Origin: an uncultured Nitrospiraceae bacterium
GTDB taxonomy: Bacteria > Nitrospirota > Thermodesulfovibrionia > Thermodesulfovibrionales > SM23-35
Assembly (NCBI GenBank): GCA_963727775.1
Contig: CAVSHB010000001.1
Span: forward strand, 1,510,199-1,574,198
Direction: 5' to 3'
DNA: 64,000 nt
The position numbers are program-made. This document shows positions 33,001-45,000 of the stretch, one piece after another (positions within the stretch are counted from its first letter, which is position 1; each line of letters starts with the position of its first letter).

Positions 33001-36000
33001 GAATATCCAAACCAAAAATGCCTTCCCCTGCTGCATTTAGAACAAGTTCATATTGATGATAAAACCTTTCAACCGACTCCTCTGCCTGCTTTCGCTCGGT
33101 GATGCGTCCTATGCGGAGTTCTTTGTCCATAACCACTTTTTCCCTTAATTGTACTTTAAACTCTCAGGGTGGCGATAAGCCTTTTCGGTGAAATAAGCAA
33201 ATTGATTGCATCAATCGGAGAAGTAACAAGGATCTGCGCGGCTTCAATAGCCCCTTTTGAACACCCCTCTTTGAGACATACAGCGATACCAATCTTCGCC
33301 GCTTTAAGCATCAGTACATCATTATTCCCGTTACCGAGAGCAACCACTCTGTCAGCGCCAAGATTGATTACGTATTTTTCTTTTTGAACTATATGCCCCT
33401 CGCCTTCCAACACATGCACCGTGCAATTTACCCCTTCAAGCTCTCTCATAGCACGGCCAAAGGTATCAGAGGTCAGCACATGGATCTTTAATTTTTCAGA
33501 CAACTCATTGAGCATTTCCTTTAAGCCTGACAGCATAAGGCCGTCTTCGGAGAGGGTCCCTGAAAAATCAGTAACAAAATGCTCAATGTGAAGAACGCCT
33601 GAGGCAGGTATTTCAATTTTAATCATGACAATGGTCCAAGTTGCATTTTTTAGAATTATAGCAGCAACCGGTTTATAAAAGTAAGATGCTTATGCCGTTG
33701 TAATCGGACACGCATCAGATCATATCGATATATATTACTTCGTTCCCGACTCTTTTATTGACTTCTAAGTCATTCAGCAACGCATCATGTTCAGGCAGCC
33801 CGGAATCCTCTACAAGTTTGTCATGCTGATTCCCTTCAAATCGAGAGAGCTCACACACTACGGCCTTCAAGACAGGATATCCCGAAATAGGATCTTTTAT
33901 CTCGGAAGGAATTATTGAGTTTACGCTTACATGCGGCCATGCCCCAATCTGCCGGCGGCCACCTCCACCAAAGGGCACATGTACTGTGCCGGCACAAATA
34001 TCGGGTGTAACATGCGCCTCCAAAGACAGCTGTCCGCTCGACGTTTGAATAGTGACAATATCACCGCTATGTATGTCCCTTGCCTCAGCGTCAAGTGGAC
34101 TAATCTCAATGACCGCCCTATTGCGGTCAGCGAGTTCAGGACGGTCCAGATACTGGGAATTGAACCTCGACCTGCTTCGTGCCCCGGTGGTAAGCATCAG
34201 CGAAGCTGCACTTTCAAAGTTAAATGGTCGAGGGTCGGTATAAGCAGGCAACGGATTGTATCCATAACGCTTCAGCAGCGTTGACATGAATTCGAATTTA
34301 CCTGTCTCAGTCGGAAAACCGGGTCTGCCGTCATGGCGCAAATTACCCGACTCATACTTTTTGTATCGACGCTCCGGAAAAGGCAGCGTGAAAACTTCAT
34401 CACCTTTATCCATGGCATTCTGTAATCCCTGATTCCTGAAGGCCTTATTTATTATCTCATTCTCGGTCTGAGGAAATGCATTTCCATAACCTAATCTTTG
34501 CGCGATGGCAGCGAGGATCATCGAATCATTCATTGCTTCACCAACCGGTTCTATTACCTTCCGGCGCAAGCGGACATGTTCCCGATAAATATGGTAGGAA
34601 TCGATCTCGTAGTATGTGCTTGCAGGAAGGACGACATCAGCCCAGGCCGCTTCTTCAGGCATAAATCTGTCGATTACAACCATGAAGTCGAGACGATCAT
34701 ATATCTTTTTCCAAATCGTTTGATCAGGGTAAGAACGACAGGGAGAGCCGCCAACTAGGAGCAGGCCTCGCACAGGATAGGGATCGTCCTGCAATACCGC
34801 AGCGGCTAATCCGGAAACATGTGCTCTGCCGGTCAAGGCATAGAACAAAGGGTATTCTTTGCATCCCAAAGGAGGTTGGTTGCCATTATAGGTATATTCA
34901 TTAAATTGCTTATGCGGGTAATCGTAAATGTAGAGGCCACCGTCAACATCTATGTTGCCTGTAAGTGCCAGTAATGAGTATAACGCCCTTGTGTTTTGCA
35001 CGCCACTTGGCGCATATTCAAGACCGCTATAGAAATCTACGGCAACATTCGAAGTCTTGGCAATGGTCTCAGCAAGCCATTCTATCGTTTGGGTATCAAT
35101 GCCACACACATGCGCTGCCTTTGCTGCTGTGAATGAAGATGCATACTCCGCGAGTTCTTCGAACCCTGATGTCCAGCGTTCAACAAAATTCCGATCATAC
35201 CAATCCCGGTCAATAATTGTTTTTATAATAGAAAGGATAAGTGCACCATCGGTGCCCGGTAGTACAGGTATCCAATAATCTGCATTCTTAGTCAGGCGAT
35301 GACGCCTTGGGTCAATAACTATTAACTTGGCGCCCCTTGCTCGTGCCTGCCGTATGCGCCGCATTTTATCAGGCAGTCCGTCTTTGAACGGATTAGCTCC
35401 CCAGAGAATAATAAGTTTCGAATTTTCGAAATCGGGAGTGATACTATCTCCCGCAAGCCCCATGGTTGTCATAGGCGCAAGTACTTTTGATGAGACGTAA
35501 CAGACCGAACCGCAGTTCATATCGTTTGGAGAACCGAAAGGAGCGAGTATCTTCTCAAAAAAATCGGACAGGCCGTCTTCCAGAGTTCCAGCGCCCATGT
35601 AACTCGCCACGGCACTCGCATTGTATACGTCTTTAATCCGCAAAAACTCGCTTGCAATCCTATCGAGTGCTTCATCCCATGTCGCCGGTCTGAAGGCCTG
35701 CTTACCTTTTTTCCCGGATCGTATCAGCGGAGTGATGATACGGTCCGGCGAGTATACAATTTGAGGCGCAAGTCTTCCCCGCCTGCACAAATTACCGTAT
35801 TGGGAATGTGGATCAGCTGCGGTTGAAACAAGCTTTCCTTTTGAGACATGGGCACGCACCCAACATCCATGTGGACACAGACCGCATATGGCAGGAAATT
35901 CTCTCAGGTTTTCGTCAGAATGCTGATGGCTTTCTAACATCCTGATTAAATTTAATATAGAATTGCAATATACATCAAATAGCTAATATCAATGGGTTTA

Positions 36001-42000: not shown

Positions 42001-45000
42001 ATATGGGAAACCGAAGTATATTGCTGATTCCTATAATCCTTCGGATAAAATTTATCAGGAAAGACCGTTTGAATGCAGCCTTTGCCAGCTATGCGCGGCT
42101 GTATGTCCCGTAAAGATCAATCCCTCCCTTATGTTTCTTGAAATGCGGCGTGATACTGCCAAACGCGGGAAAGGTGATTATCCGGAGCATTCCGTCATAT
42201 TGGAATATGAAAAGCGCGGAACATCCAAACGCTATACTTACTACGCTTTTCCTGAGGGTTGTAACACTATTTTATTCCCCGGCTGTACTCTTGCAGGAAC
42301 ACGGCCTGATAAGGTAATAGAACTCTATGAACACTTGAAGCAGTTCATCCCTGCGCTTGGAATTGTACTTGATTGCTGCGCAAAGCCCTCACATGACCTT
42401 GGAAAAGAAAAATATTTCAATGCATTGTTTAATGAGATGAAGGAACTATTGCCGGAACCGTTAAAGTCTCTAAGGCTCCTTTCACTTATTTAAATAGGAT
42501 AATACTGAAAAAAAAGCTGAAGCATATGGTGAACGGCTCCATAAGCCGTGAAAGAACCTTCACGGCAGCAAAGACTAAGAAAAGAGGAATATTAAAGCGC
42601 ATTCTCTTCCTTGTATTTATTATCGCCGCTATCTTTGTGATACGTTTTACAGGTGCAACAAGCTATCTTGAGCAAGGTGCCCTTAGATTCTGGGACTCGG
42701 CCTTATCATTTTAGTGTCGTTAATTCCGTTATTTTACAGACGTTACAAAATTAAAAAAAGGAAGCCTGATCTGCTGTGATCAAATGTAATAATGATTTGC
42801 TTATTCTAATTCTGTGCAGCGATAAATTTTTATATCATCAAGGTAAATAATTCCGGTAACACCCTGAAGGCCTATTCTAATCATTGCTTTTTGGGCATCT
42901 TCCGGAATTTTCCATTTATAAGATACTACTTTCCAATCAAATGTGCCATGGAAACGATCCCAATCGGTTGGATTTTTTAGACCATGTGGGGTCACAGCCT
43001 CGATATCAATATATCCACCATAATTGTGCTGAGGCTTATCTCCGATATTATCGCCTTTAATCATTGCATCTATTCTAATTATTTGCCCAGCCCAGACAGT
43101 CACAGGCAAGTTCAATTCCAATGCCGTGAAATCATCTTCATCGGTACATATCCTCTGTATTTTCGCAGCCTTTCCACTAAAACCATCACTCAATAAAATA
43201 CTACCACCTTCATCATGTGGTTCCCAGTCTGTATAACTTTCATCGTCGAATGTGTATGACTTTATTTGTTCACAGGTAGCTAACAGCGGTGTTACTTCCA
43301 CCATAAAGGTTGCAGAAATCAAAAAAACCGTTAAAATTGACAATATAGTTAGCTTCATTTTTTTATTTCGCCGCGAGTTTTCCGAAACAGCGTCCAATCG
43401 ACAAGGCTAACCAAAAGTTCTTTTATTAATTCTAATGTTTTTGGGTCTGTAACCTTCCCGTCTTTATCGATCTTCTCATTAGCAAAAGGTACCATGACCT
43501 CGGGACGGTTCACTGGATACATGTTCAAAAAAACAAAACATTGACGTAGATGGTATTGTGCTCTTGCCGTACCTATCATGCCTATTGAAGCTCCCATAAC
43601 GGCAACCGGCTTGCCCTCCAGAACATTGTCACCATATGGCCTTGAGGCCCAGTCAATCGCATTCTTGAGTACCCCGGGAATAGAGTAGTTATACTCGGGA
43701 GTGGAAATTAAAATAGCGTCCGCCGTTTTGATCTTAGCCTTAAAGTCCTTAACTTTTCCCGCTGGTTCTTTTTCCAAATCCTGATTAAAAGGCGGGATGC
43801 CTTCAAGATCAAATATGCTTAGTTCAGCATCACCCGGAACTAAACTCGATGCAGCCCGTAATATTGCCTTATTGTAAGAATCCTTCCTTAAACTGCCTGC
43901 GAACCCAAGAATTGATATTTTTGTGTTCATAGCCCCTCCATTTATGTAATCAGTGAGACATCAATCAGAAGCAGTTCGGCATCGCTATCAGCAGATATAT
44001 GTGTATCCATTGCTCCCACAACTTGGGCCGCTCCGAGGACAGGGATTCTGTTACCATTTGTTTCCACTGGACCTCCTTCCAGCACATATAGATATGCTCC
44101 GCGACCTTTTTCCAATGAATGCTCGACACTATGCCCTTTTCGGAGAAAGCATGAATACACCCGCGCATCAGAATGGATAAGGAGCGCATCCTCATGCTCA
44201 TTCGAAACAAGCGGGAGGAGCTTGTTTGTCCTATCTTTTTTCTCAACTGCCTTTTGTTCTACAGAAGGTACCAGATCTATTTCCGATGGAATGAACCACA
44301 TTTGAATGAATCGCATCGGAATGTCTGATCTGTTGTTTATTTCCGAATGGTACATGCCCCGTCCTACAGTAGTATGCTGCACCCATCCTTTTTTAAGGAC
44401 ACCGCCTTTCCCCCGCTGGTCTTCATGACGGAATTCCCCTTCTGCACAATAGGTGACAACCTCTATTTCACTGTGGGGATGAAGCGGCCATACAGCGCCG
44501 GGAGAGAGGGTATCGTCATTGAAGACCCGCAGTGTCCCAAGTTGCATGTGTTCGGCGTCGTAGTTGTCGCCAAAAGAGAAATGCCAGCGGCCGTGAAAGG
44601 TGCCATTCACTATTTCTCCATGGATCTGATAAATACTTTCCGGCTCACGTATGATTATCTGGGGCTTTACTATGGCCTTTTTGTGATTCGACATGTTTAA
44701 TGCTCCTTGTCTAACGCTGATATGTCAAATGTCCTCCACACTTCCAATGTAACACACTCAAAGAAACTGTCAAGTTAAGGACGATTCTTTGTTCCTTTCT
44801 TTTTTATAGATTATCAACTTACTGTTTAGAACGGGACGGCACACTTAATTCAGGAGTTATAGTCACCTTGATCTTATCCTCAAGAATTTTCAATCTATCA
44901 GTCACATTCTGATATCTATAAAGGCGAAGTCCGTAGTCATCCATATAAGATTCCATCTTAAAGACTTGCGCAACCCCTAAGTGCCATGACCAGTCGGGCG

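Follow-up and report, generated by a model that had tools for sequence, protein, structure and literature searches.

Polysulfide and thiosulfate reductases carry a twin-arginine export signal and are encoded with adjacent B and C subunits, and selenium-dependent molybdenum hydroxylases combine an enzyme of the xanthine oxidase family with YqeB/YqeC maturases. The metallopterin ergothioneine synthase MES has been called the first Mo/W-pterin enzyme to form a C-S bond, and those who discovered it put forward that sulfur is attached to heterocycles by further Mo enzymes, still unassigned (PMC9516567). Sulfur transfer by MES is chemically reversible, and in the enzyme of Caldithrix abyssi, CaMES, transfer between chains failed (PMC9516567). 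In acetylene hydratase, exchange of Asp13 for Ala abolishes activity (PMC12096430), and Trp179, Trp293 and Trp472 surround the active site (PMC7970554). We show here that an uncultured Nitrospiraceae bacterium (the index genome) encodes a real, uncharacterised Mo/W enzyme that is related to MES.

The Mo/W enzyme and its selenium island

The gene lies in the window, the whole stretch of 64,000 nucleotides analysed here (Table 1). Its product contains the Pfam domains Molybdop_Fe4S4, Molybdopterin and Molydop_binding, and domains and fold place it in the DMSO reductase (bis-MGD) superfamily. The [4Fe-4S] motif C19/C22/C26/C52 corresponds to C14/17/21/48 of CaMES and the ligand C147, invariant across all aligned groups, to C153, as compared by eye with the published supplement (PMC9516567). 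R54 stands two residues past the fourth cluster cysteine, and P23 occupies the position of Asp13 of acetylene hydratase. As the earlier note had claimed, the protein is unfused: the reading frame stops at residue 741 and the C-terminal cysteine desulfurase of MES, with K952, C1074 and C1135, is absent. The N-terminus lacks a twin-arginine motif, residues 704-741 are disordered, and no adjacent gene encodes a partner subunit for electron transfer; the genome carries ModA and PBP_like_2 proteins. Nothing in the GC points to recent transfer, and a promoter and terminator scan returned no more matches than shuffled sequence (12 vs 14.6). A C-terminal Sec read-through at the stop TGA, which is followed by TGC, was rejected because TAA or TAG ends the gene in 6/8 relatives and no hairpin follows it at the spacing that the five Sec codons of the genome show.

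The neighbours belong to a known generic selenium island, of which the genes from MauE-like to ATPase activator are the other half. We found them where the earlier note had placed them, including the adjoining selD with its in-frame TGA (codon 20, 37067-37069), while the strands, the truncated LarE-like gene and the Fe-S gene fragment needed correction. The TGA is read as Sec because it is conserved across selD genes; a hairpin after it was not significant by shuffle (z -0.08). This selD is one of two copies in the genome. The genes for Se_S_carrier, YedF and the desulfurase run on the strand opposite to the Mo gene and diverge from it, and the catalytic loop of the desulfurase reads RxGxRC here vs RxGxHC in three orthologues. 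The LarE-like frame spans positions 2-172 of a model of 259, with a full-length paralogue on contig C3; none of the other selD loci retrieved has such a gene. TIM barrel 1 occurs in 2/251 class genomes and lies, in G392, within a selenium island without Mo gene. The HAD-like protein recurs in the class beside selD, DCCP, rhodanese and LysR genes and, in G491 (75%), stands immediately downstream of the Mo gene.

Table 1. Features of the Mo gene region, in window positions
Feature	Position	Strand	Remark
MauE-like, rhodanese, double-cubane cluster reductase and ATPase activator	28475..31568	+	about 2 kb downstream of the Mo gene
Small HAD-like protein	33156..33626	-	88 bp downstream of the Mo gene
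Stand-alone Mo/W-bis-MGD enzyme, MES-related family, 741 aa	33715..35940	-	ORF and Pfam
SelD selenophosphate synthetase, in-frame UGA	36071..37126	-	130 bp upstream of the Mo gene, same strand
LarE-like PP-loop protein, C-terminally truncated, 195 aa	37197..37784	-	profile match
AP_endonuc_2 TIM barrel 1	37831..38616	-	54% to tandem copy
AP_endonuc_2 TIM barrel 2	38754..39530	-	Pfam
Se_S_carrier (DUF3343)	39738..40004	+	divergent from the selD run
YedF (TusA and DsrE domains)	40057..40671	+	profile match
TIGR01977 cysteine desulfurase/Sec-lyase-like	40690..41859	+	profile match
Dicluster Fe-S gene fragment, NF045663-like, 209 aa	41864..42493	+	616 aa in G491

Kinship with MES

A homologue search (E<=1e-30) gave 1097 matches. 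Among the 120 homologues listed, 114 are unfused (478-771 aa) and 6 are of the fused MES type, the split that had been counted before; the 99 best matches are all unfused, and the longer matches are formate dehydrogenases of 26-31% identity. The Mo protein is 42-43% identical to the six fused proteins listed and 38% identical, over 766 columns, to the fused MES-type protein P0149. As judged by sequence, MES is its closest characterised relative (38-43% identity, vs 24-26% for acetylene hydratase and polysulfide reductase). Protein atlas searches returned generic names only, and no characterised unfused homologue was found in the literature within our search reach, outside which most subscription papers lie. 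With distant outgroups in the tree, MES and the unfused proteins group together as one clade (SH 99), and they have in common the near-invariant G118, E/D121, Y304, E308, Y309 and Y452, which are missing from most outgroup rows. The Mo-gene clade and MES differ at 24 positions that are conserved within each group, and the segment E121-G136, whose length is our own criterion for MES, has 25 residues in 55/56 fused MES rows and 15 in the Mo-gene clade. As monophyly of the unfused proteins is compatible with the AU test (p 0.33), an origin of MES within the unfused family is favoured (SH 96-97) at most.

The Lys or Arg at R54, aligned with K48 of acetylene hydratase, is a residue that we take to link cluster and pterin; we found no account of the role of K48 in acetylene hydratase in the literature. 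It occurs in 39/42 scored proteins of the Mo-gene clade, in 61/61 other unfused and in 43/46 outgroup proteins, and overall in 100/103 unfused vs 18/53 fused MES proteins, many MES having K/R one position earlier. Since it is kept in the unfused members and relaxed in fused MES, it points to a true redox enzyme. The earlier note had proposed bond formation with a chalcogen taken from separate carrier proteins; compared to bond formation from a persulfide carrier, the kept Arg speaks rather for redox chemistry, which may well be the cleavage of a bond.

EgtD is absent, as had been noted: PF10017 has no match in the 96.8%-complete genome. It occurs in 0/5 genomes with the unfused form only vs 12/13 with MES-type genes, which supports the earlier suggestion of a substrate other than trimethylhistidine. 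Three of the ten carriers of the unfused gene have EgtD, and in two of these (G419, G423) a separate fused MES lies beside egtD. Almost certainly, the Mo enzyme does not make ergothioneine, and trimethylhistidine is very unlikely to be its substrate. Ergothioneine itself is an unlikely substrate because MttB is absent in 5/5 carriers tested and an OpuAC-type binding protein in 4/5.

In four genomes (G443, G435, G563, G564) we observed an MES orthologue that lacks the desulfurase half and lies directly against egtD. These proteins are 68-72% identical to the fused MPT module, compared to only 39-41% for the unfused clade, and have Leu at the R54 position. Because they adjoin egtD, members of the family may be able to receive sulfur in trans, and the four pairs bear directly on the published rule that sulfur transfer is intramolecular.

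Neighbourhoods and possible reactions

Unfused close relatives occur in 4/401 phylum and 10/390 class genomes (index genome included in both counts), hence relatives in the phylum are not only of the fused type, as had been stated. A scan of genome contigs gave 2 loci, the metagenome scan mostly MES-type loci, and viral and plasmid scans distant matches only. Co-occurrence with SelD is uninformative because SelD is near-universal in the class (345/390 genomes), and the selD of the index genome is explained by Sec decoding. Sec use, too, is near-universal in the class. Two selD matches are found in 7/10 carriers vs 25/335 other selD-positive genomes (hand-counted), a comparison in which genome size, split genes and kinship are confounders.

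The earlier note had held the neighbourhood not to be conserved. This is correct for selD, which adjoins the Mo gene in the index genome only among the ten carriers (34 kb away in G492), however other neighbours recur in our survey, whose scope has no named Firmicutes member. Alone among the island genes, yedF is found close to the Mo gene in as many as three families: besides the index genome, it is encoded within 5 kb in G378, together with a LysR_Se fragment and a DCCP pair that flanks the Mo gene, and in G605, where yedF lies downstream, is split over two contigs and has a stop in its second half, and where metY-cysK-metX-metW diverge. The island HAD gene adjoins the Mo gene in G491, which represents yet another family, and at locus L021 a PatB C-S lyase and an ABC importer lie near the Mo gene; a full YedF match was not found in G398 and G472. 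Island markers, from a list partly drawn from the same loci, occur at 3/10 distinct non-index clade loci vs 0/103 MES-type loci (547 kb flank), so that the link to Se/S-carrier genes has more support than the earlier note had assumed. Six of the nine other carriers have no island gene within the flank available, with G419, G472, G398 and G605 near contig ends. All three lineages that have island neighbours fall into a single subclade (SH 95), so the placement may have been inherited from one event. A molybdate-binding TOBE gene follows the Mo gene in 3/10 carriers. Among carrier loci no substrate-pointing neighbour and no tailoring or biosynthetic gene recurs, nor does the adjacent desulfurase that had been thought to do so.

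These observations suggest that the unfused clade performs Mo/W-dependent transfer of S or Se on or off a small organic molecule other than trimethylhistidine. The best explanation, to which we give a probability of about one third, is that S or Se is removed reductively from an organic substrate and handed on to SelD, CysK or MetY; in its favour, genes whose products use or transport chalcogenide (selD, yedF, DCCP, metY-cysK, HAD, PatB) lie near clade genes. The chemistry, redox nature, direction and partners that we infer would be as follows. A soluble cytoplasmic, Cys-ligated Mo/W-bis-MGD enzyme with one [4Fe-4S] cluster would use a MES-type terminal sulfido (or selenido) atom transfer and would exchange electrons with an external carrier via R54 and the cluster, unlike MES, which is re-oxidised by persulfide from its fused desulfurase. 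Mo(IV) would take S or Se from a thione- or selone-type C-S or C-Se bond, ferredoxin would provide two electrons for the release of HS-/HSe-, and the chalcogenide would pass to SelD or CysK/MetY, perhaps via YedF.

The reverse direction, biosynthetic C-S or C-Se bond formation on a substrate other than trimethylhistidine with the chalcogen supplied in trans by YedF, the Sec lyase/desulfurase or SelD products, draws on the same kinship and neighbourhoods and on the desulfurase-less MES beside egtD. We consider it rather unlikely. R54 is kept here and is Leu in those four proteins, transfer between CaMES chains failed, the recurring biosynthetic gene or desulfurase is missing, and the genome has no SelU or YqeB. 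A Cys in the C-terminal tail of 21/38 close relatives loosely resembles MES Cys1135, but tail Cys content (36/1168 aa, 3%) is about the random-codon expectation and the Mo protein's own tail has none.

The enzyme might instead transfer oxygen to, or (de)hydroxylate, a carbon of an N-heterocycle such as imidazole C2 or purine C8, which would be the MES reaction with oxo in place of sulfido, or catalyse some other redox step that has no bearing on S/Se, the island location being incidental. This would suit the majority of carriers, which have no S/Se neighbour, and the TOBE genes. Relatives of 43-45% identity occur in all three of the classical purine fermenters, Gottschalkia acidurici, G. purinilytica and Clostridium cylindrosporum (PMC3519856). 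Their proteins fall into a different subclade, the accessible part of that paper assigns purine redox chemistry to xanthine dehydrogenase and purine hydroxylase without naming the Mo gene, and yedF near the gene in three families is left unexplained; this reading seems doubtful.

A soluble reductase of inorganic chalcogen (polysulfide, selenosulfide, thiosulfate or selenite), as a source of HSe-/HS- for SelD or cysteine synthase, is more improbable still. The Cys ligand and the island location agree with it, polysulfide/thiosulfate reductase is the best match in a sequence search of solved structures (E 3e-61), and PhsA is among the top NCBIfam matches, however far below cut-off (287 of 694 bits). 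Against it, MES is a far nearer relative of the protein than Psr is, no B/C subunits are encoded at any Mo locus read, and near-universal SelD and Sec use meets a Mo gene in 10/390 genomes.

A long shot is that the clade transfers Se atoms, breaking or making a C-Se bond via Mo/W=Se in a reaction coupled to YedF and SelD, and thereby salvages Se from an organoselenium metabolite or makes such a metabolite anaerobically; in that case, MES would have been recruited out of the unfused radiation as its parent family. Lastly, an ergothioneine synthase half working on imported hercynine, or an acetylene hydratase, as the kinship with MES, the top Foldseek match and the database names of some relatives would have it, is largely refuted by the missing EgtD, fusion and loop, the separate fused MES in G419 and G423, the much closer true desulfurase-less MES, and Pro for Asp13.

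Thus, a concrete unfused family around MES is delimited, and one clade with its own active-site signature and S/Se-linked neighbourhood is set apart. The database names acetylene hydratase and BisC are unlikely to be right. Redox-active or persulfide-driven catalysis becomes a residue-level prediction, for which the E. coli system of the MES work would serve as a test (PMC9516567).

Comparison with known systems

The described selenium-utilisation island (SelD, YedF, DUF3343, Sec lyase, LysR_Se and a dehydratase-like/activase pair) is the neighbour set of the window; in the accessible part of its source the word molybdopterin has 0 occurrences and the gene set holds no molybdopterin enzyme (PMC5322559). 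Compared to selenium-dependent molybdenum hydroxylases, the Mo protein has a DMSO-reductase fold. With PsrA/PhsA (PDB 2VPW) it shares a Cys-ligated bis-MGD and possibly the S-atom chemistry that we propose here, however identity is 26% and export signal, Fe-S and membrane subunits are missing. Acetylene hydratase (PDB 2E7Z) is the best structural match (TM 0.80), alike in its single-subunit cytoplasmic architecture, Cys ligand and K48-equivalent basic residue, and differs in sequence (24% identity), in Asp13 and, by alignment, in W179/W293/W472, which become L189/F303/R453. MES shares the acetylene-hydratase-like bis-MGD module, the four-Cys cluster motif, the Cys ligand, Pro/Ser at the Asp13 position and the motifs G116-x-G118-x-x-E121 and Y304-x-G-x-E308-Y309. 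Unlike MES, the Mo protein has no fused desulfurase, no relay cysteines, no egtD in its genome and no 10-residue loop after E121 (15 vs 25 residues), it has D140/C143/F303/R453/Y597 in place of T/V/M/G/H, and it keeps the electron-path Arg.

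Kinship with the metallopterin ergothioneine synthase

The Mo gene is real, and its product is an uncharacterised variant within a known kind of enzyme. Its structure model is confident for residues 8-703 (mean pLDDT 86), and acetylene hydratase is the top structural match (TM 0.80, 24% identity). The kinship with MES, the metallopterin ergothioneine synthase with a fused cysteine desulfurase, that the earlier note had proposed is borne out: identity reaches 42-43% to six fused MES-type proteins among the matches listed and 38% to the fused MES-type protein P0149. In trees of 94 and 35 selected rows, trimmed to 760 residues, MES, a Firmicutes-rich unfused group and the clade of unfused close relatives form a single branch versus distant outgroups (SH 99, all trees). 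G118, E/D121, Y304, E308, Y309 and Y452 are common to MES and the unfused groups and absent from most outgroup rows. Judged by its sequence, the Mo protein belongs with the MES group. The best trees nest fused MES among unfused proteins (SH 96-97), and one single unfused clade is not rejected by the AU test (p 0.33). A literature search, outside which most subscription journals fell, returned the MES paper and reviews and no characterised unfused homologue.

The disordered tail of the Mo protein carries DSG 16 residues and IYID 40 residues past the last domain Cys, resembling the MES linker and the start of the MES desulfurase. In MES linkers, DSG stands at +15 in 19/74, and most IYLD-type motifs fall between +33 and +46. 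The tail motifs, which were picked post hoc, are rare in shuffles (0.002 and 0.001), and a MES linker profile scores the tail no better than shuffles (806/1974).

The selenium island and its recurrence in relatives

A Sec-containing selD does lie beside the Mo gene, as noted earlier. SelA is encoded in the source genome, as are Sec-type molybdopterin genes that contain an in-frame TGA; Sec decoding therefore already accounts for SelD. The TIGR01977 desulfurase has Arg in its catalytic loop where three orthologues have His; taken with the truncation of the LarE-like and Fe-S genes, this hints that the island is decaying or that its sequence contains errors. The HAD-like protein, found in 163 of 390 class genomes and often beside selD, DCCP (double-cubane), rhodanese and LysR genes, is possibly an unlisted selenium-island member. 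A second Sec-type selD in the source genome is 49% identical to the window copy.

Features of the window and of related loci
Feature	Location	Strand	Remarks
Mo gene	33715-35940	-	741 aa, three DMSO-reductase-family domains
Disordered tail of Mo protein	33715-33855
selD	130 bp upstream of Mo gene	-	same strand as Mo gene; in-frame TGA at codon 20
HAD-like gene	33156-33626		156 aa; 88 bp downstream of Mo gene
Se_S_carrier, yedF			divergent from Mo gene
TIGR01977 desulfurase	40690-41859		divergent from Mo gene
LarE-like ORF, Fe-S ORF			truncated
Two multi-haem cytochrome genes	44819-48234
DDE transposase	48796-50223		follows the cytochrome genes
Second Sec-type selD (L158)	G000:C4:188338-189342		downstream of NuoG-like/electron-bifurcating cluster
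Desulfurase-less MES module + egtD	L134:6292-9480		G443
Desulfurase-less MES module + egtD	L135:485-3752		G435
Desulfurase-less MES module + egtD	L136:7628-10858		G563
Desulfurase-less MES module + egtD	L137:8045-11217		G564
Unfused MES-like gene	L030:7998-11145		47% to fused module; downstream of ABC transporter genes, adjoins MttB-like methyltransferase

The close clade is present in 10 of 390 class genomes, and among these carriers only the source genome has selD adjoining the Mo gene. To this extent the earlier statement that the selenium neighbourhood is not conserved stands; it does not extend to yedF, which recurs in G378 and G605, nor to the HAD gene, kept beside the Mo gene in G491 (75%). 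Directly upstream of the Mo gene, G378 (57%) has a LysR_Se fragment, a double-cubane pair and yedF. A CMD-family gene, the Mo gene, a TOBE gene and the start of yedF form one run in G605 (65%), divergent from metY-cysK-metX-metW; this yedF has a stop codon in its second half. The TOBE gene also follows the Mo gene in G398 and G344. The selD/carrier-yedF-desulfurase cassette is kept at 73-81% in G491 and G492, without the Mo gene, which in G492 lies 34 kb away. The TIM barrel occurs in 2/251 class genomes, and its G392 copy sits in a selenium island without the Mo gene.

Outside the index locus, 3 of 10 distinct clade loci (63 kb of flank in all) have island markers within 5 kb, as against 0/103 MES-type loci (547 kb, near-duplicates among them) and 0/7 other loci. 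Counting against a link, the full flanks of G344, G423 and G492 yielded no markers, and G398 and G472 no full YedF. For yedF within 5 kb in 2/9 genomes, p is about 0.0005, or 0.007 allowing for 14 neighbours, values that assume independent placements. The island-bearing lineages, however, group in one subclade (SH 95), so it is safer to read this as a linkage that three families have kept. In the metagenomic clade member L021, a PatB C-S lyase and an ABC importer precede the Mo gene. An S/Se role of the Mo enzyme has moderate evidence in its favour.

Electron exchange and the possible reaction

R54 of the Mo protein aligns to K48 of acetylene hydratase, a site whose Lys or Arg connects the cluster to the pterin in formate dehydrogenase and nitrate reductase. 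K/R is found there in 39 of 42 clade rows scored (8 unscored), 61/61 other unfused rows (1 unscored) and 43/46 outgroup rows (30 unscored), and in only 18/53 fused MES rows (3 unscored), with the caveat that many MES have K/R one position ahead. Caldithrix abyssi MES (CaMES), compared with the Mo protein by eye from the published supplement, has Leu. Retention of K/R suggests that unfused members still exchange electrons with an external carrier. MES is proposed to be re-oxidised each cycle by persulfide (PMC9516567), so relaxed selection at this site in MES makes sense.

We tentatively propose, at a probability of about one in three, that the Mo enzyme removes S or Se reductively from an organic substrate. 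Mo(IV) would abstract the chalcogen in reverse of the MES half-reaction, shown to be reversible (PMC9516567), and electrons passing via the cluster would release HS- or HSe- for SelD, CysK or MetY. Such a reaction is consistent with an enzyme that stands alone, has kept its electron path intact and lies near consumers of chalcogenide. Ergothioneine is unlikely as the substrate, since MttB is absent from 5/5 and an OpuAC-type binding protein from 4/5 carriers tested. The unfused MES-like gene of L030 is itself a candidate for ergothioneine/hercynine breakdown.

Formation of a C-S or C-Se bond with chalcogen supplied by carriers in trans is unlikely. Sulfur transfer between CaMES chains failed (PMC9516567), but four genomes have a desulfurase-less MES orthologue abutting egtD. 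These modules, encoded by ORFs of 719-757 codons and 68-72% identical to a fused one, run directly into egtD (above the TIGR03438 cut-off), and no desulfurase half was found in the stretches of flank examined; they are candidate desulfurase-less ergothioneine synthases from two families. Oxo-transfer on an N-heterocycle is likewise doubtful, and reduction of inorganic chalcogen appears rather improbable.

EgtD, SelU and YqeB matches are all absent from the source genome (96.8% complete). EgtD occurs in 0/5 genomes with the unfused form only versus 12/13 with MES-type genes (18 genomes), and in 3 of the 10 carriers; it adjoins a separate fused MES in G419 and G423, and a search for MES in the EgtD-positive carrier G472 found none. 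A 10-residue segment present in 55/56 fused MES rows is missing from the clade, and clade and MES differ at 24 positions, each conserved within its own group. Asp13, essential in acetylene hydratase (PMC12096430), is Pro in the Mo protein, and the Trp residues named in PMC7970554 align to L189, F303 and R453. On these grounds we reject MES and acetylene hydratase proper, either of which would be a very improbable identity. Elsewhere, the 99%-complete genome G262 carries a fused MES-type gene (L013) whose loop sequence is altered, and has no EgtD match.

Compared with known systems, MES carries a fused desulfurase (PMC9516567), whereas the Mo protein stands alone. The island around it corresponds to a known selenium gene set, as SelD, YedF, DUF3343, Sec lyase, LysR_Se and a dehydratase/activase pair cluster in other bacteria (PMC5322559).
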